Below are positions 2,067 to 8,324 of a stretch of DNA of 40,742 nucleotides, in pieces; the first letter of the stretch is position 1, and every line of letters begins with the position of its first letter. The notes under the pieces are model-generated. The model did not search any database. It was not told where the DNA came from and saw nothing but the letters and a program-made list of their open reading frames with translations. The position numbers were made by a program, and so were the translations under genes. Source of the DNA: Polyangia bacterium. GTDB lineage: Bacteria; Myxococcota_A; Polyangia; Palsa-1104; SHYY01. The DNA is taken from the NCBI GenBank assembly GCA_036263495.1, contig DATAGU010000185.1, forward strand, positions 1 through 40,742. Reading direction: 5' to 3'.

Positions 2067-3548
2067 TCAGCGCACGTCGTCGCGGATGGCGTCGAGGAGG
2101 GCGGCGAGGTCGGCGTCGCTCGTGAGCGGGTTGATGAGCGTGGTGCGGAGGTAGACGCCGTCGGCGAGGCGGGTCTGCACGAGGTAGAAGCGCCCCGACT
2201 CGACGAGACGCTGGCGGATACGGGTCTGGAGCGCGTCGCGCTCGGCGGGCGCGAGGCCGACCGGCGCGTAGCGGAAGCACACGATGTTGGCCTCGGGGGA
2301 GGTGGCGAGCTCGAAGCCGGGGGTCTCGGTGATGCGACGGGCGAAGCGGCGCGCGAGGTCGAACGTGGCGTCGATGTGGTCGGCGAAGAGCCGCGTGCCG
2401 TGCACGAGGAGCGACAGGTAGAGCTTGGCCACCATGACGTCCTTGGTGCACTCGAGCGTGCGCACGCCGAGGTTGAACCACTCCTGCGGGCGCTCATGCG
2501 CGGGGGCGAAGAGGTACGAGGCCTCCTGCGCGAAGGTTTGATAGGAGTGCCGCCCCTCGCGGAACAGGACGGCGGTGACGAGCGAGGGGACGAGCATCAT
2601 CTTGTGGGCGTCCCACACGACCGAATCGGCGCGCTCGATGCCTCGCAGGAGCTCGCGGTAGCGCGGCGAGAGGATCGCGCTCGCGCCGTGCGCGCCGTCG
2701 ACGTGGAGCCAGAGGCCGCGCGCGGCGCAGAAGTCGGCCATGGGTTCGAGCGGATCGAAGGCGCCGGTGGCGGTAGAGCAGGCGCTGGCCACCACCGCCA
2801 CCACGCGGCGTCCGGCCCGCTCGGCGGCGGCGAGGGCCGCGGGCAGGGCCTCGGGGCGCAAGCGATACTGCGCATCGACGGGCACGGGCACGGCGCCGCC
2901 CTGGCCCCAGCCCATGATCTGGACCGCGCGCGAGACGCTGTAGTGCGCCTGCTCCGAGACGAGGAGCGCGAGCGGGGGGCCGCCGTGGTCGCCCTGGCTC
3001 CAGATGTCGAAGCCGGCGGCCGCCTGCCGCGCCGCGAGGAGCGCGGTGAGGTTGCCGGCCGAGCCGCCCGAGGTGAAGATCCCGTCGGCGGCGTCGCCGA
3101 GGCCGAGCGTGCGCGCCATCCAGAGGACGAGGCGTCGCTCCATGGCGGCCCCCACCGGGCCCATCTCGTAGATGGCGGTGCCGTTGTTGAGGAGCGACAC
3201 CACGAAGTCGCACAGCGCGGCCGTGGGCAGGGGCGCCGAGACCTGATGTCCGGTGTAGCGCGGGTGGTGCAGGTGGTGTGATTGATCGATGAGACGGCCG
3301 AGCTGCTCGATGAGGGTCTCAGGCGCCGCCGGCTCGGCGGGGAACTCGCCCTGCCAGCGGCCGAGCATCTCGTCCGGCGCGGTCCAGGGCAGCACCGGCA
3401 GCTCGCGCGCCTCGACCCGCGTGAGGTACTCCGTCAGATGATCGATCAAGCGATGGCCGAGGGTGCGGAAGGTCTCGGGGTCGAAGGCGGCGCGCGGAGC
3501 GTCCTGGGGAGGACGTTCGGGGTGGCTGGACATGCCCTGTGATACCAC
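2067..3548 (-). CDS. pyridoxal-phosphate-dependent group II amino-acid decarboxylase (aromatic-L-amino-acid/glutamate/DABA decarboxylase family)
   Basis: 493 aa. Fold-type I PLP decarboxylase hallmarks are present: TSGGSAGNLTALLAAR, HVDGAHGAS and the PLP-lysine motif DAHKMMLVP. The first codon of the ORF is GTG; an ATG at ~3533 (MSSHPE) is an alternative start. Confidence 0.85.
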   Translation of the reverse strand: MVSQGMSSHPERPPQDAPRAAFDPETFRTLGHRLIDHLTEYLTRVEARELPVLPWTAPDEMLGRWQGEFPAEPAAPETLIEQLGRLIDQSHHLHHPRYTGHQVSAPLPTAALCDFVVSLLNNGTAIYEMGPVGAAMERRLVLWMARTLGLGDAADGIFTSGGSAGNLTALLAARQAAAGFDIWSQGDHGGPPLALLVSEQAHYSVSRAVQIMGWGQGGAVPVPVDAQYRLRPEALPAALAAAERAGRRVVAVVASACSTATGAFDPLEPMADFCAARGLWLHVDGAHGASAILSPRYRELLRGIERADSVVWDAHKMMLVPSLVTAVLFREGRHSYQTFAQEASYLFAPAHERPQEWFNLGVRTLECTKDVMVAKLYLSLLVHGTRLFADHIDATFDLARRFARRITETPGFELATSPEANIVCFRYAPVGLAPAERDALQTRIRQRLVESGRFYLVQTRLADGVYLRTTLINPLTSDADLAALLDAIRDDVR

Positions 3549-3630
3549 GAGGCATCGAGCTCGCTGGGGGCTTGCGGCGGTGGAGCGTGTGAAGGGAGGA
3601 GGGAGAGGCGGAAGGCCGCGGGTCTACGGC

Positions 3631-5046
3631 CTACGGGAAGATGCCGAGGTCGAGGTAGGACTGCGCGACCTTGTTGATCGCATTGATCAGCGAGGCCGTG
3701 CGTAGATCCACGCGCGGGCCCTTCTGCTTCTGGATCTCGCGGGTGGCGTGATAGGCCATGATCATCGTGTCCTCGAGGCCCGAGTTGACGAGGTCCTCCT
3801 CGTCGGCGCCGTGGGCCAGTGCCTTGATCTCCTGCTCGGAGAGCTTGGCCCCGGTGGAGCGCTGCATCGCCTGCAAGAGGCCCTCGTAGGTGCGTTGCTC
3901 GAAGCGCTTGCCCATGCGGCCGAAGCGCACGTGGTTGATGTTCTTCAGCCACTCGAAGTAGGACACGGTCACGCCGCCGGCATTCAGATAGATGTCGGGG
4001 ATGATGAGGATGTTGCGCTCGGTCAGGATCTCCGAGGCGCGGCTCGAGGTCGGTCCGTTGGCCGCCTCGGCGATGATCTTGGCCTTGATGCGCGCGGCGT
4101 TGTCGACGGTGATCTGGTTCTCGAGCGCGGCGGGCACGAGGACGTCGCAGTCGAGCTCGAGCGCCTGCGCCGGGTTCTCGAGGTTGGTGGCGCCGGGGAA
4201 GTTGAGGATCGACTTGGTCTCCTGGCGGAAGCGGATCACCTCGTGGATGTCGAGGCCCGAGGGCTTGTAGATGGCGCCTTCGACCTCGGCGAGACCGACC
4301 AGGATGGCCCCGCCCTCCTGGAGGTAGAGGGCGGTGTGGTAGCCGACGTTGCCGAGGCCCTGCACGACCACGCGCTTGCCCTTGAGGCCGGCCGAGAGGC
4401 CGAGCGAGCGCATGTCCTCGGGGAGCTCGCAGGCTTCGCGGATGCCGAAGAACACGCCGCGGCCGGTCGCCTCCTTGCGTCCGCGCACGCCGCCCTGTCC
4501 GACGGGCTTGCCGGTGACGCAGGCGAGGGCGTCGAGCTTGTCGGGCGCCATGGCCTGATAGGTGTCGGCGATCCAGGACATCTCGGCCGGGCCGGTGCCG
4601 TAGTCCGGGGCGGGGACGTCGATGCCGGGGCCGATGAAGTTCTTCTTGAGGAGCTCGGCGGCGTAGCGCCGGGTGATGCGCTCGAGCTCCGAGCGCGAGT
4701 AGTTCGAGACGTTGATCTTGATGCCGCCCTTGGCGCCGCCGAAGGGCACGTCGACGATGGCGCACTTGTAGGTCATGAGCGCGGCCAGCGCCATCACCTC
4801 GTCTTCGTTGACCGAGAGGCTGTAGCGGATGCCGCCCTTGGTCGGGAGCTTGTGGTGGCTGTGCTCGGCACGCCAGGCGTGAATGACCTCGATCGAGCCA
4901 TCGTCACGCCGGATGGGGAACGCGATCCGATAGACGTGATTGCAGACCTTGATCTGATCCAGGATGCCGCGGGGGAATTGAGTGTGTGCAGCTGCTTTTT
5001 CGAAATTGTGGGAAACTTGTTCCCAGAAACTGATGTGTGTCGTCAT
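3631..5046 (-). CDS. gdhA: glutamate dehydrogenase (Glu/Leu/Phe/Val dehydrogenase family)
   Basis: 471 aa. Carries the GDH signature KGGIRYS...VDVPFGGAKGGI and the Rossmann NAD(P) motif VVVQGLGNVGYH. Lies 82 bp upstream (on the minus strand) of the decarboxylase gene. Confidence 0.88.
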   Translation of the reverse strand: MTTHISFWEQVSHNFEKAAAHTQFPRGILDQIKVCNHVYRIAFPIRRDDGSIEVIHAWRAEHSHHKLPTKGGIRYSLSVNEDEVMALAALMTYKCAIVDVPFGGAKGGIKINVSNYSRSELERITRRYAAELLKKNFIGPGIDVPAPDYGTGPAEMSWIADTYQAMAPDKLDALACVTGKPVGQGGVRGRKEATGRGVFFGIREACELPEDMRSLGLSAGLKGKRVVVQGLGNVGYHTALYLQEGGAILVGLAEVEGAIYKPSGLDIHEVIRFRQETKSILNFPGATNLENPAQALELDCDVLVPAALENQITVDNAARIKAKIIAEAANGPTSSRASEILTERNILIIPDIYLNAGGVTVSYFEWLKNINHVRFGRMGKRFEQRTYEGLLQAMQRSTGAKLSEQEIKALAHGADEEDLVNSGLEDTMIMAYHATREIQKQKGPRVDLRTASLINAINKVAQSYLDLGIFP

Positions 5047-5299
5047 GGGCGCATCTTAACCGCTCTTCCGCCGGGAAGTAAACGGAACAGAGGAAGGATT
5101 TTCGGCAGTTGCTCCTCGGTCGGCCGTCCCGCGGGCCGCGTCGGGATGTGAATGCAAGAGACACCGTGGGTGCGCGGGCGTTAGTGCACTGCGTCAATAG
5201 TTCAGAGCACTGATCTACTGATCTATTGTGGAGAAGGAGAGCGACTGCGGTTGCTGTCTGCAGGTGTGCGGCGGATGCGCGGCGGCGGACGTCGTGCGG

Positions 5300-6553
5300 T
5301 CAGTACACGCCGGGCAGGATGCGCCAGCGCACCCGGCGGCAATACTCGTCCCAGTCGGCGCCATAGTGCTCGGCGCAGCGCCGGTGGTCGCGGCGCTCGC
5401 GGTCGACCAGGAGCACAATGAAGTAGGTGATGTAGAAGTAGGGCAGCGGGTGTGAGAAGCCGCAGGGCAGGCACCAGGCGAGCCCCATCATGAGGTCGCC
5501 GAGATAGTTGATGTGCCGACCGACGCCCCACCACCCCGAGACGAGCAGGCGCGTGCCCCGCGCTGTCTGGAGGAACTCGGGCTTCTTGCCCCAGATGGGC
5601 CGGTCGGGATCGGTGCGGAACCGGTGCTTCTGCAGGTTCGAGCTGCGGAAGACGTAGTAGCCGGCGAGGTTGAGGGCGACGATGCCGGCCACGGCCGGAG
5701 CGGGGAGATCATGGGCGTGGTGCAGGAGGTAGTACGCCTGGAGCGAGTACATCGCCGGCACCCACAGGAGGTCGCCCCAGCACAGCATCCAGCCGAAGTT
5801 CTCGTGCTTGATGTCCCAGGTGGTGAGGATCGCCTCCTCATGAAAGAAGTAGTCGGCCACGTAGAGGATGTGGAAGACGTTGACCAGGATCATGGGCACG
5901 GTCACCTGGCCGTGGAGCTCGTACTGCTTGGCCGCGAGCGACAGGTTCACCGCCACCCAGCCGACCAGGCCGGGGCGGCTCTCGCAGAAGAACTTGAAGT
6001 CGAAGTCGCCGCTGCGGGGGTTGAGTGAGGCGCCGATGCAGAAGTCGGTGAGCGGGTCACCGGTCACGCGCTCGGCCCTCGGTGAGCTGCGTCCCCGGAA
6101 GTAGAGGAACACGCTGAGGATGAAGACGAACAGGTTGACGGTGGTGACGAGGGAGCCGAAGTGGTCGTGGATGAGCGTGGGCTTGAGCCATCCGGAGAGG
6201 ACGAGGCCGCCCAGGCACAGCCAGGTGATCCAGAAGCTCAGCCAGCCGTTCATCTTGTAGCGAAGGCGCGTGCCGTCGGCGAGCTGGGTGCCCTCGACCC
6301 AGCGGCCGGGGACGAGGAGCTGGAGCAGCACCTGGAAGCCGAACCAGGCGAGATAGATGAGGATGGATGTGGTGGTCGGTCCCGGGATGCGCGCCATCCA
6401 CTGGCCGAGCTCGGTGAGCGAGCGCGGCGCGATGAGCGCGCCCTGGTTCTGATCGACGCACAGCCAGGCGTAATAGACGAGCGACGGCAGCCCCACCAGC
6501 ATGGCGAGGGCGCCGAGGCGTTTGGGTCGAGGGGTCGCGTGGGTGGAGGTCAT
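5300..6553 (-). CDS. sterol reductase, ERG4/ERG24/DHCR7 (lamin-B-receptor-type) family
   Basis: A polytopic membrane protein carrying the C-terminal signature of the family: GWWGVGRHINYLGDLMMGLAWCLPCGF and LLVDRERRDHRRCAEHYGADWDEYCRRVRWRILPGVY. The track ORF begins with GTG at 6577. I prefer the ATG at 6551–6553 (MTSTH...), which has a GAGGA 10 nt upstream. Confidence 0.85.
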   Translation of the reverse strand: MTSTHATPRPKRLGALAMLVGLPSLVYYAWLCVDQNQGALIAPRSLTELGQWMARIPGPTTTSILIYLAWFGFQVLLQLLVPGRWVEGTQLADGTRLRYKMNGWLSFWITWLCLGGLVLSGWLKPTLIHDHFGSLVTTVNLFVFILSVFLYFRGRSSPRAERVTGDPLTDFCIGASLNPRSGDFDFKFFCESRPGLVGWVAVNLSLAAKQYELHGQVTVPMILVNVFHILYVADYFFHEEAILTTWDIKHENFGWMLCWGDLLWVPAMYSLQAYYLLHHAHDLPAPAVAGIVALNLAGYYVFRSSNLQKHRFRTDPDRPIWGKKPEFLQTARGTRLLVSGWWGVGRHINYLGDLMMGLAWCLPCGFSHPLPYFYITYFIVLLVDRERRDHRRCAEHYGADWDEYCRRVRWRILPGVY

Positions 6554-6821
6554 GGGTCGTTCATCCTCGCGGCGCACCTTCGCATGGTTGCCGGGTCGAA
6601 ATCCATCCCCTGGCCCTTCGGGTTTCTGAGGCGCGGGCCATTCACTGTCCTGCGGTCGTCTCGTGTCCGCGATCGGTGACTGAACGATTGCTGCAGCAGC
6701 GCTAGAAAGTTCTGCTGATTTCGTCTTTTACCGACCGGATGCTTCATCGGCCATCGCGTTTTCCCCTCCCAGGGGCCCCGGGAGGGCTCTGCCAAAACGT
6801 CAATCCGCTATTTGTTGAGGG

Positions 6822-7115
6822 GTGTTCTTCATGGAGAGCGTAGCGGAGCCCGGAGCCAATACTGTCGAGGCGGCCCGGTCGGGCCTCGCCATGGATTCCG
6901 TTCACCGAGAACTCGTCACTCGCATCCGCGAGATGGTGCGCCGCAAACACTGGTCGGCCAATCAACTGGCCGACTTCAGCGGCGTGGGGCGGGGCTATCT
7001 CTCCGACATCTTGTCAGGGAAAAAGTCCCCTACAGTGCGTACGCTCGTAAAGATCGCCGAGGCCCTGGAGGTCGACGTCAGAGATCTCTTCGGCGCGGGG
7101 CCGCGCACGCGCTAG
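6822..7115 (+). CDS. XRE-family helix-turn-helix transcriptional regulator (Cro/C1-type)
   Basis: 97 aa. HTH motif NQLADFSGVGRGYLSDILSGKKSPTVRTLVKIAEAL. Divergently oriented from the sterol reductase gene across a 268-bp intergenic region. Confidence 0.75.
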   Translation: MFFMESVAEPGANTVEAARSGLAMDSVHRELVTRIREMVRRKHWSANQLADFSGVGRGYLSDILSGKKSPTVRTLVKIAEALEVDVRDLFGAGPRTR

Positions 7116-7196
7116 ACGCTTCTACATATAGATAGAGGAAGGAGGGGGAGTTCGTGGGGGCGAACGAATGGGGGGTACTGCTCGTCCGTCAGGTGA

Positions 7197-8324
7197 TCAG
7201 GCGCGGCGGGAGCGGGCGAACTCGTCCATCATGCCGACCAGCGCCTCCACCCATTCGAGGGTCACCGCGTTGTAGAGCGAGACGCGGATGCCACCCACCG
7301 AGCGGTGGCCCTTGAGGCCGGCCATGTTGGCCTTCTTGGCCGCGGCGAGGAACGCCTCTTCGAGCTCGGCGCTCGGCAGGCGGAACACCACGTTCATCAC
7401 CGAACGGCTCTGCGGCTCGACGGGGCAGCTGTAGAGGTCGGGGTAGCGGTCGATGGCGCCGTAGAGGAGCGCCGCCTTCTTGCGGTTCCATGCTTCGATC
7501 TGCGCGAGGCCGCCCGACGCCTTGATCCAGGCGAGCACGTTGCGGACGAGGTAGATGCCGAAGGTGGGAGGCGTGTGATAGAGCGAGTTGTTCTCGGCGT
7601 GGACGCGGTACTGGAAGATCTTGGGGATGTCGGTGCGCCCCGTGGCGAGGAAGTCCTTGCGCGCGAGCACCACCGCGAGCCCGCTCGGCCCGACGTTCTT
7701 CTGCGCCCCGGCATAGATGAAGGCGAAGCGCGAGACGTCGAAGGGCCGCCAGATGAAGTCGCTCGACATGTCGCACACGAGCGGCACGCCGGCTCCGGCG
7801 AAGGTGGAGGCGAAGTCGAAGAACTCCACGCCGTGGATGGTCTCGTTGCTGGTGAAGTGGAGATAGGCGGCGCCGGCATCGACCGATAGCTCGCCGGGCG
7901 TCGGCACGCGCGTATACTGCTTCTCCTTGCCCTCGCCGACGCCGGTCGAGCCCGCCAGGCGCACGCGCCCGCCCACCATTTGCGCCACCACCTTGGCCTC
8001 GCTGTGGGCCTTCTCGCCCCAGGCACCGGTGAGGACGTAATCGGCGGAGCGGTCCTTGGCGAGGAAGTTGAGCGGCACCTGGGCGAACTGCTGCGAGGCG
8101 CCGCCCTGCAGAAAGAGCACTTCATAGGTGTCGGGCACGGCGAGGAGCTCGCGCAGGAGCGAGATCGCCTCGTTGTGCACCGCCTCGTACTGCTTGCCGC
8201 GGTGGCTGTGTTCCATGACCGACATGCCGCTGCCCTCGAAGTCGAGGAGCTCGCGCTGGGCGCGTTCGAGCGCGGGGAGCGGCAGGGCGGCGGGACCGGC
8301 ATTGAAATTGAGGGTGCGTTTCAC
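7197..8324 (-). CDS. serC: phosphoserine aminotransferase
   Basis: 375 aa. SerC motifs are present: [22 protein letters not shown], and [19 protein letters not shown] (PLP lysine). GTG start with an AGAGGAGGAG RBS 7 nt upstream. Confidence 0.9.

Follow-up and report, generated by a model that had tools for sequence, protein, structure and literature searches.

The reductase locus

The window analyzed here is a 40,742-nucleotide (40.7-kb) contig of an uncultured Polyangia bacterium, and the features around its single sterol reductase gene are listed in Table 1. The gene has an in-frame GTG at 6577 as an alternative start. Downstream, on the same strand and across a gap of 253 nt, lies gdhA, which is also the downstream neighbor in two further contigs, L001, whose reductase is 92% identical, and L127, an independent JGI metagenome contig that is 99.83% identical to positions 2364-7690 of the window. 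Because L127 shows the same order independently, an artifact of assembly can be dismissed. Upstream and divergently oriented is a gene for a small XRE/Cro-C1-type HTH protein; the gap between the two genes measures 268 bp from the GTG of the XRE gene, precisely the length given in the first-pass annotation, and 277 bp from its ATG. That annotation was also right in placing the reductase beside gdhA and a small HTH regulator, and in describing it as not clustered with cyclase, monooxygenase or demethylase genes: no cyclase, epoxidase, CYP51, ERG2, or SdmA/B gene was found anywhere in the 40.7-kb contig. No Rfam match was found over the whole length of the window, and the promoter and terminator scan of positions 5000-7300 revealed no sigma70-like promoter or terminator pattern.

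Table 1 Features at the reductase locus, with positions numbered along the window
Feature	Positions	Strand	Remarks
Glutamate dehydrogenase (gdhA)	3631-5046	-	ELFV_dehydrog domains, NCBIfam GdhA-like; not part of the sterol function
Sterol reductase CDS	5300-6553	-	417 aa; ATG at 6553-6551; stop codon 5300-5302; MaSR1-type, probably delta14-sterol reductase
Possible 18-codon uORF	6550-6606	-	MDFDPATMRRCAARMNDP, then stop; read directly from the sequence
Conserved 63-nt leader	6554-6616	-	Directly upstream of the reductase start; GAGGA Shine-Dalgarno at 6568-6564
Remainder of divergent intergenic region	6617-6830		About 80% conserved in L001 (window 6640-6870 vs. L001 1-260)
Dyad 1	6688-6700		TTGCTGCAGCAGC; core palindrome GCTGCAGC at 6690-6697
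Dyad 2	6705-6722		GAAAGTTCTGCTGATTTC; 4-nt arms GAAA/TTTC
GC-rich inverted repeat	6764-6786		CCCTCCCAGGG/CCCCGGGAGGG; 11-nt arms, 91% complementary; from repeat search
XRE/Cro-C1-type HTH protein	6831-7115	+	94 aa from ATG; 97 aa from GTG at 6822; HTH_3
Class-V aminotransferase, serC-like	7197-8324	-	Followed by serA, hisS, purA; housekeeping context

Family, fold and integrity of the reductase

The reductase matches the Pfam profile ERG4_ERG24 (PF01222) across profile positions 11-432 of 432 (E = 1.1×10−131; score 440 bits, cut-off 27), and no NCBIfam model matched it in the NCBIfam profile search. A search of the PDB returned two matches only, 4QUV (MaSR1; E = 9×10−149, 53% identity without gaps across residues 16-417) and 9l5r (E = 3×10−78), the latter a eukaryotic delta14 reductase structure. 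The AlphaFold model (pLDDT 88, pTM 0.87) aligns with 4QUV in Foldseek (E = 5×10−33, TM-score 0.83-0.89) and has the ten-helix membrane fold of MaSR1, and the nearest structure outside the family reaches a TM-score of only 0.35. The full-length PF01222 match and the MaSR1 alignment uphold the first-pass assignment of an ERG4/ERG24/DHCR7-family sterol reductase in a myxobacterium. It had also been called eukaryote-like, of which the sterol reductase family stands; since the nearest characterized protein is the bacterial MaSR1 at 53% identity, however, the gene is better placed in the large bacterial clade to which MaSR1 belongs. The reductase is an ordinary addition to an already known enzyme family.

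The NADPH-pocket residues N359 and R395 of MaSR1 correspond to N547 and R583 of LBR (PMC4951196). Their counterparts in the reductase, N349 and R385, are both invariant among 203 bacterial homologs. The C-terminal string of the reductase, LLVDRERRDHRRCAEHYGADWDEYCRRVRWRILPGVY, fits the pattern that had been proposed for it, and the two deviations H384D and K396H fall at unspecified positions of that pattern. Against the family's C-terminal signature in PROSITE-like form, LL-x-H-R-x2-R-D-x3-C-x2-K-Y-G, every position is kept except for the same two. Of the 203 bacterial homologs, 177 have H and 16 have D at position 384, and 159 have K and 5 have H at position 396, so that both are minority variants and do not break the family. 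A third substitution, F267A, is shared with none of about 200 homologs, which have F or Y instead. All eukaryotic references and most bacteria have F/Y, H and K at positions 267, 384 and 396, and the three substitutions could shift substrate or cofactor handling.

The gene is intact and under purifying selection, with dN/dS = 0.098 against the reductase of L001 (dS = 0.43). Among the 129 columns conserved in at least 90% of the family, the reductase deviates at two, which equals the family median. A degenerating gene was considered and is ruled out by these two results.

Sterol-gene neighborhoods and the target double bond

In a scan of genomes for homologs, in which the best match showed 63% identity, close homologs (47-63% identity) were found inside the sterol gene clusters of many bacteria, which bears out the earlier suggestion of a plausible part in biosynthesis. 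One or more sterol genes lie within 10 kb of the homolog at 44 of the 80 genome loci, and at 36 of the 42 closest loci. The sterol neighbors are genes for ERG2-like C8 isomerase, CYP51, oxidosqualene cyclase (OSC), and SdmA/B. An ERG2-like gene is present at 31 of the 80 loci, CYP51 at 15, and OSC at 15; the identity of the CYP51 neighbors was verified by comparison with PDB CYP51 (E = 1×10−115). ERG2-like genes that share the strand of the reductase match end 7-201 nt upstream of it. Two examples of cluster order are SMT-SdmA-SdmB-SdmB-squalene epoxidase-reductase and SdmB-SdmA-OSC-ERG2-reductase. MaSR1 itself, the C14 reductase MEALZ_1312 of Methylomicrobium/Methylotuvimicrobium alcaliphilum, adjoins the ERG2-like C8 isomerase MEALZ_1311 (PMC10202945, Supplementary Data; loci L033-L035 and L072), whereas the window gene has no such neighbor. 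The window lineage has lost this usual upstream partner, the reductase now lying between gdhA and serC, and it illustrates that ERG2 and the reductase, although usually paired, can become separated. Myxobacterial ERG24 homologs have been treated as ancestral pathway genes (PMC8237579). Scattered sterol genes, including a C14 reductase homolog, are known from the myxobacterium Enhygromyxa salina (PMC10202945; Lee, Wei and Welander 2023), a layout like that of the window, although its whole genome and sterol products are known and the window organism is represented here by one contig. The unclustered position of the gene is therefore not remarkable, since such a layout has already been reported.

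Pairwise identity with the reductase is 53% for MaSR1, 46% for TM7SF2, 45% for LBR, 42.5% for DHCR7, and 33% for ERG4, the reference sequences having been validated by exact database look-up. Like MaSR1, which shares its family, length, predicted fold, pocket Asn/Arg and broad bacterial clade but has F, H and K at the three substituted positions, the eukaryotic C14 reductases are closely comparable. TM7SF2, the LBR C-terminal domain, yeast ERG24 and plant FACKEL (FK) belong to the same Pfam family (36-46% identity) and share with the reductase the motifs NxQKxxFR, RHxNYxGD, and LLxxRxxRDxxxCxxxYG. In contrast to these proteins, the window reductase is of bacterial origin and its gene lies outside a eukaryotic context, and it is without LBR's N-terminal nuclear domain. 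DHCR7 and ERG4 belong to the same superfamily and have the same C-terminal signature, but their identity to the reductase is lower than that of the C14 types MaSR1, TM7SF2 and LBR.

A neighbor-joining tree was built from Kimura distances with 200-300 bootstrap replicates, using as references DHCR7, TM7SF2, LBR, ERG24, ERG4 and six plant FK sequences, without plant DHCR7. As to placement among the C7, C14 and C24 reductases, the tree excludes the ERG4 (C24) type, but the groupings of the bacteria with TM7SF2/LBR/ERG24, FK or DHCR7 are supported at 11-39% (300 replicates). Because the relevant nodes are all below 40%, the choice between C14 and C7 rests on MaSR1 and on the gene context of relatives. 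The closest characterized homolog, by both the PDB search and pairwise identity, is a C14 reductase, and the reduction of the C14 double bond by MaSR1 in vitro was reportedly described by Li and colleagues in 2015. From MaSR1 and the neighbors in relatives, the specificity is most likely of the C14 type. Taking these results together, we assign a probability of about 0.7 to the reading that the gene encodes a functional NADPH-dependent sterol C14 reductase of the large bacterial clade containing MaSR1, with the other pathway genes elsewhere in the genome. The protein would be an integral-membrane enzyme with the 10-TM fold of MaSR1, and it would use NADPH to saturate the C14=C15 double bond left by CYP51 after 14-alpha-demethylation, the predicted reaction being delta8,14-diene to delta8-sterol. 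This would be a single step in a sterol pathway, the remaining genes of which are presumed to lie elsewhere in this Polyangia genome.

It is also conceivable, at odds of roughly one in eight by our judgment, that the enzyme acts on another sterol bond, be it delta7, the target of DHCR7, or a different nuclear or side-chain bond. The identity to DHCR7 is only slightly below that to TM7SF2 and LBR, the tree leaves these groups unseparated, and the lineage has lost the linkage to ERG2 and CYP51 that characterizes the clade. The substitutions F267A, H384D and K396H could be read in the same way, as could the finding that D384 is common to a Polyangiaceae subgroup in which, in one metagenome-assembled genome, it occurs in a second paralog beside an ERG2-linked copy (L037, L057). 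Nevertheless, the best characterized relative, aligned without gaps, is a C14 reductase, and the ERG4 type is clearly excluded. Furthermore, the CYP51 clusters of relatives hold a single ERG4/ERG24-family gene, and a C14 reductase is required in such clusters; these neighborhoods, which hold CYP51 and ERG2, do not favor the DHCR7 type.

The adjacent XRE gene and the divergent intergenic region

The XRE protein matches HTH_3 at residues 35-89 (E = 1×10−13; score 51 bits, cut-off 23), and its gene has a Shine-Dalgarno sequence, GAGGGG, 8 nt before the ATG. The G+C content of the gene is about 61%, compared with 70% for the contig, and its GC3 is 0.79, compared with about 0.9 in neighboring genes. 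Only 32 homologs of the protein were found in the database, and the closest are located in Mu-like transposon, prophage or defense-island settings in all four contexts checked. The small Cro/C1 HTH proteins of Mu-like prophages and defense islands are 61-77% identical to the window protein over the HTH domain; like them, it is small and its gene lies divergently beside an unrelated gene, but it differs from them in having an N-terminal extension of about 30 aa and no flanking transposase, phage or defense genes. In the scan of 80 genome loci, no reductase had an XRE gene next to it. The adjacency was found only in the window, in L127 (99.8% identical) and in L001 (92% amino-acid identity); it is restricted to the window lineage rather than kept across divergent lineages. 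Most likely, the XRE gene is a mobile-element-derived HTH gene that landed at the reductase locus.

Two dyads in the divergent region (Table 1) had been proposed as the operator of the XRE protein. The intergenic footprinting compares two sequences, window and L001, as the scans found no further close relatives; in the metagenome scan, no closer relative exceeded about 69% identity. In L001, the DNA matching 6617-6830 does not adjoin the reductase but precedes the window-type XRE gene, and about 590 bp and an additional XRE gene lie between it and the reductase; of its upstream DNA, the L001 reductase keeps only the 63-nt leader. The best-conserved blocks of the gap are 6786-6830 and 6686-6712 (CTGCAG..GCGCTAGAAAGTTCTG). 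The CTGCAG core of dyad 1 is kept in L001, with 7 of 8 positions matching, and the outer arm of dyad 2 is broken (TTTC to TCTC), only its inner AGAAAGTTCT being conserved. The GC-rich inverted repeat is absent from the conserved positions of L001. The repeat search did not report dyads 1 and 2. The gap contains two perfect 8-bp palindromes, against 0.96 ± 0.99 in shuffled sequences (25% of shuffles reach two), and 19 dyads with 4-nt arms, against 13.6 ± 4.6. No operator-like dyad was found in the gap that is both beyond chance and conserved between regulator and target.

These results leave little room for the view that the XRE protein specifically represses or activates the reductase gene by binding to the dyads (6688-6722) of the divergent region between them, and we consider it about as improbable as activity on another bond. 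The view draws on the divergent adjacency in the lineage's three available contigs and on the conservation of CTGCAG..GCGCTAGAAAGTTCTG, with its AGAA-N2-TTCT dyad, between the window and L001. However, the three contigs are closely related (dS ≤ 0.43), and the claim that the dyads form an operator is not supported in view of the lineage-only adjacency, the mobile contexts of the closest XRE homologs, the low G+C content of the XRE gene, the chance-level frequency of the dyads, the poor conservation of dyad 2, and the layout in L001. The conserved gap DNA is best explained as part of the region upstream of the XRE gene itself, and we infer that regulation of the reductase by the XRE protein is lacking.

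Sterol synthesis and other roles

Bacterial sterol synthesis, in particular that of Myxococcota, bears on the reading of sterane biomarkers and on origin scenarios for eukaryotic sterols. The reductase adds one uncultured Polyangia lineage that probably carries a post-cyclization sterol step; the picture itself is unchanged, since the family, its bacterial distribution and the dispersed layout have been described already. A different role is possible if the organism makes no sterols de novo and its lone reductase modifies sterols acquired from the environment or from eukaryotic prey, a role that has been suggested for the single sterol reductases of Coxiella and of some non-sterol-producing eukaryotes. 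The isolation of the gene among housekeeping genes, the predatory habit of myxobacteria, and the retention of single reductases in organisms without sterol synthesis (PMC2817430) speak for such salvage. Against it, delta8,14-dienes are transient intermediates that are unlikely to be obtainable from outside, most close homologs lie in de novo pathway clusters, and the cholesterol-producing myxobacterium mentioned above has dispersed pathway genes (PMC10202945); we regard salvage as unlikely. The strong purifying selection on the reductase fits both readings.

Similarly doubtful is the proposal that the lineage of the window and L001 has a neofunctionalized stand-alone sterol reductase, decoupled from ERG2 and CYP51, with a unique pocket change (F267A) together with H384D and K396H in the cofactor signature. 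Such an enzyme might act on another double bond or on prey sterols, and it might be controlled through its leader, for example by translational coupling to the uORF or by XRE binding. A non-sterol isoprenoid or polycyclic-triterpenoid reductase sharing only the fold is very improbable: the contig is without other sterol genes and the wider fold class does include non-sterol reductases (among them the steroid 5-alpha-reductase PbSRD5A, which gave a weak structural match), but the strong match to the sterol reductase family, the identity to MaSR1, the embedding of the clade in sterol clusters, and the low TM-score of the nearest non-family structure all argue against it.

A conserved leader upstream of the reductase

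The value of the locus for follow-up lies only in the lineage-specific active-region substitutions described above and in an unusually conserved leader. Between the window and L001, the 63-nt leader has about four mismatches, only one of which falls in 6567-6616, while the flanking coding sequence has dS = 0.43. Of this conservation, only the ribosome-binding site, a GAGGA 10 nt before the ATG, is accounted for. A structured RNA or riboswitch was considered and rejected, as the leader folds less stably than shuffled sequences (z = +1.06 and +1.40) and has no Rfam match. Neither is the leader an ERG2 remnant, none of its three frames resembling ERG2 C-termini (...ELLxGKI followed by a stop). 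We have further noticed a putative uORF, considered only possible because no good Shine-Dalgarno sequence precedes it, whose TGA overlaps the ATG of the reductase as ATGA. In L001 this uORF stays open (MDFDPAAMRRCAARMNCP, then a stop) and overlaps a GTG start.

A sterol reductase encoded apart from other sterol genes

The reductase on this contig of an uncultured Polyangia bacterium matches Pfam ERG4_ERG24 over nearly the entire profile (E = 1.1e-131) and has no matching model in NCBIfam. Its assignment to the ERG4/ERG24/DHCR7 family in the first-pass annotation is thus borne out, and the C-terminal signature pattern claimed for it is found in the protein. Only two solved structures are matched by the sequence, both of them delta14-sterol reductases: MaSR1 of Methylomicrobium alcaliphilum (4QUV; E = 9e-149, residues 16-417 aligned without gaps onto 26-427) and the eukaryotic enzyme 9l5r (E = 3e-78). 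The AlphaFold model (pLDDT 88, pTM 0.87) resembles 4QUV with a TM-score of 0.83-0.89, and the second-best fold, steroid 5-alpha-reductase, reaches only 0.35. N359 and R395 in the NADPH pocket of MaSR1 correspond to N547 and R583 of LBR, both of them disease residues (PMC4951196); they align with N349 and R385 of the window protein, both invariant across 203 bacterial homologues. Of the 129 columns with at least 90% conservation, the protein deviates from consensus at 2; this equals the family median, and judged by its sequence the protein is a typical family member. Compared with the 92%-identical reductase on L001, a contig of a relative, dN/dS is 0.098 at dS = 0.43, and the gene is therefore under strong purifying selection. 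We conclude that it is a genuine and, by prediction, functional sterol reductase that belongs to the MaSR1-type bacterial clade.

As first described, the reductase gene is flanked by gdhA and a small divergent HTH gene; around them are amino-acid and nucleotide housekeeping genes. The divergent gap is 277 bp from the XRE ATG, or the 268 bp originally given when counted from the GTG at 6822. The rest of the 40.7-kb window carries PLP decarboxylase, serC-like, serA, hisS and purA genes, genes for a GYF/zinc-ribbon protein, a major-vault-protein homologue and a giant kinase-GAF-GGDEF protein, and SDR, hemerythrin and HlyD/AcrB efflux-pair genes. None of the genes in the window other than the reductase is a sterol gene, which confirms that it is not clustered with its pathway. 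This gene order does not stem from misassembly, since L127, an independent JGI metagenome contig, is 99.83% identical across window 2364-7690. The window, L127 and L001 all have the reductase without sterol partners. The arrangement is not novel, given the explicitly dispersed sterol genes of Enhygromyxa salina (PMC10202945).

Features of the window discussed in the text
Feature	Position	Strand	Remarks
Glutamate dehydrogenase	3631-5046	-	reductase neighbour
Sterol reductase CDS	5300-6553	-	417 aa; ATG at 6553; alternative in-frame GTG at 6577
K396H codon	~5366-5368	-	rare minority variant
H384D codon	~5402-5404	-	minority variant, shared only with a Polyangiaceae subgroup without sterol neighbours
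F267A codon	~5753-5755	-	WVPFTY motif; Ala in no other of ~200 homologues
Candidate uORF in leader	6606-6550	-	18 codons; TGA overlaps reductase start codon (ATGA)
Reductase leader	6554-6616	-	63 nt upstream of reductase start; goes with reductase in L001
GC-rich inverted repeat	6764-6786		not kept in L001
HTH_3/XRE protein	6831-7115 (or from GTG at 6822)	+	divergent from reductase
Major vault protein (MVP) homologue	16367-19393	-	1008 aa
Signalling protein	19464-24851	+	1795 aa; Ser/Thr kinase, AAA_16 (STAND-like) ATPase, two GAF, GGDEF

Predicted double-bond specificity

The reductase shares 53% identity with MaSR1, 46% with TM7SF2, 45% with LBR, 42.5% with DHCR7, 40-42% with plant FACKEL-type (FK) reductases, 36% with yeast ERG24 and 33% with ERG4. 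The human (DHCR7, TM7SF2, LBR) and yeast (ERG24, ERG4) references were checked by exact look-up, and the FK references are genuine sequences fetched separately. In neighbor-joining trees with 200-300 bootstraps, ERG4 is set cleanly apart, and the bacterial clade is not resolved from the DHCR7, FK and TM7SF2/LBR/ERG24 groups (support 11-39%). Placement by phylogeny, as the first-pass annotation had proposed, therefore excludes the C24(28) type and does not tell C14 from C7. The poor backbone separation fits earlier work, in which eukaryotic ERG24 homologues were not monophyletic and were nested among myxobacterial ones (Hoshino and Gaucher, PMC8237579) and the Plesiocystis homologues were placed with FK (Desmond and Gribaldo, PMC2817430).

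Since the tree alone does not separate C14 from C7, the functional argument is based on the genomic context of relatives. Scanning one genome per species gave 80 homologue loci with 47-63% identity to the window reductase (best match 63%), from Myxococcota, Methylococcales, Rokubacteria/Methylomirabilota, Acidobacteriota, Planctomycetota, Latescibacterota, Spirochaetota and others; the metagenome scan yielded no close relatives. Probing within 10 kb with the sterol proteins of two annotated clusters found at least one sterol gene at 44 of the 80 loci, and at 36 of the 42 closest. An ERG2-like C8 isomerase is present at 31/80 loci, CYP51 and oxidosqualene cyclase (OSC) at 15/80 each, and at least one of OSC, CYP51, SdmA and SdmB at 22/80. 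Same-strand ERG2-like genes end 7-201 nt upstream of the reductase match, and M. alcaliphilum has such an ERG2-reductase pair (MEALZ_1311 and MEALZ_1312; PMC10202945 Supplementary Data 1). The CYP51 neighbours were confirmed against PDB CYP51 (E = 1e-115), and a CYP51-ferredoxin fusion directly follows the reductase in two Polyangiaceae loci. In the CYP51-bearing clusters the reductase is the sole ERG4/ERG24-family gene. MaSR1 reportedly reduces the C14 double bond of the cholesterol pathway. Because these clusters need a C14 reductase and hold no other candidate of the family, and because of MaSR1, C14 reduction is the best-supported activity; we predict that the window protein is most likely a C14 reductase (probability about 0.7).

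At 36 of the 80 loci, mostly with 47-54% identity, no recognisable sterol gene lies within 10 kb. A subset of these (L047-L083) comprises a Spirochaetota/Leptospirales group, from phyla not known for sterol synthesis, and many Myxococcales/Polyangiaceae. The substitutions F267A, H384D and K396H are all carried by the L001 reductase too. It is improbable that these lineage-specific changes, together with the lost linkage to the pathway, point to a salvage role or an altered substrate.

Several relatives have further features. One Pseudomonadota MAG has an ERG2-linked H384 reductase (L037) and an unlinked D384 paralogue (L057), and two ERG2-reductase pairs occur in one Polyangia MAG (L030, L031); such paralogues hint that the bacterial clade contains functional sub-types. 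The Latescibacterota sterol cluster L002 (chromosome OZ252228; 19-1725, 4441-5340), with interspersed IS elements, encodes a sterol methyltransferase (Sterol_MT_C) as well as an FAD_binding_4 protein of 568 aa that may be a DHCR24-like C24 reductase. FAD-binding, geranylgeranyl-reductase-like genes in several reductase/OSC clusters (L003 2866-3963; L011, L018, L019, L023) probably encode Bsr, a C24 sterol reductase of bacteria (PMC12004948).

The divergent XRE gene and intergenic DNA

The XRE protein has only 32 homologues in the database. One homologue cluster has the identical sequence and pointed to L127; for the others, identity across the HTH domain is 45-77%. The four homologues whose context was examined all lie beside Mu-type transposase genes (rve/Mu-transpos_C; Mu-transpos_C_2 with IstB), in a Mu-like prophage (Portal_Mu, methyltransferase, resolvases) or in a defence island (SMODS, type I restriction-modification system). 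Both the G+C content (~61%) and the GC3 (0.79) of the gene are below those of its surroundings (70% and ~0.9), and an XRE homologue adjoins the reductase at none of the 80 genome loci. The gene probably encodes an HTH protein of mobile-element origin, not a sterol regulator.

Dyads in the divergent region had been proposed as the XRE operator. They are statistically unremarkable, and in L001 the second dyad (GAAA..TTTC) is disrupted. Window 6640-6856, which holds the XRE start, its upstream DNA and both dyads, is ~80% identical to L001 1-215, the far end of that contig, where the window-type XRE gene is cut. A second XRE gene (239-565; only 59% identity over 66 aa) and ~590 bp of unrelated DNA then precede the reductase, so the dyad-bearing DNA accompanies the XRE gene, not the reductase. 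In L001 1-870, two tandem XRE genes thus separate the reductase from serC-side DNA, so HTH genes are gained or lost at this structurally plastic site. Conserved between the two contigs is CTGCAG..GCGCTAGAAAGTTCTG, containing an AGAA-N2-TTCT element. The simplest reading of this DNA, from the comparison of two contigs, would be XRE autoregulation. A role in controlling the reductase, suggested by the divergent arrangement in the window, is unlikely and unsupported.

The leader shows ~4 mismatches to L001, only one of them in 6567-6616, and is far better conserved than the synonymous sites in the CDS next to it (dS = 0.43). Position 6553 is supported as the start by a GAGGA Shine-Dalgarno sequence 10 nt ahead of the ATG; the corresponding codon in L001 is GTG. 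Possible roles of the leader are those of a coupled uORF, of a site for protein binding, or of a promoter together with a ribosome-binding site. It does not form a stable RNA structure (z = +1.06 and +1.40), a relic of an ERG2 3′ end was rejected, and no Rfam family was matched.

Elsewhere in the window, the MVP homologue has MVP_shoulder (2e-19) and Vault_3 and Vault_4 repeats in Pfam and matches rat/human MVP structures over residues 400-925 (phmmer E = 7e-27); bacterial MVP homologues have been discussed before (bioRxiv 10.1101/872010). The gene for the 1795-aa signalling protein is divergent from it.
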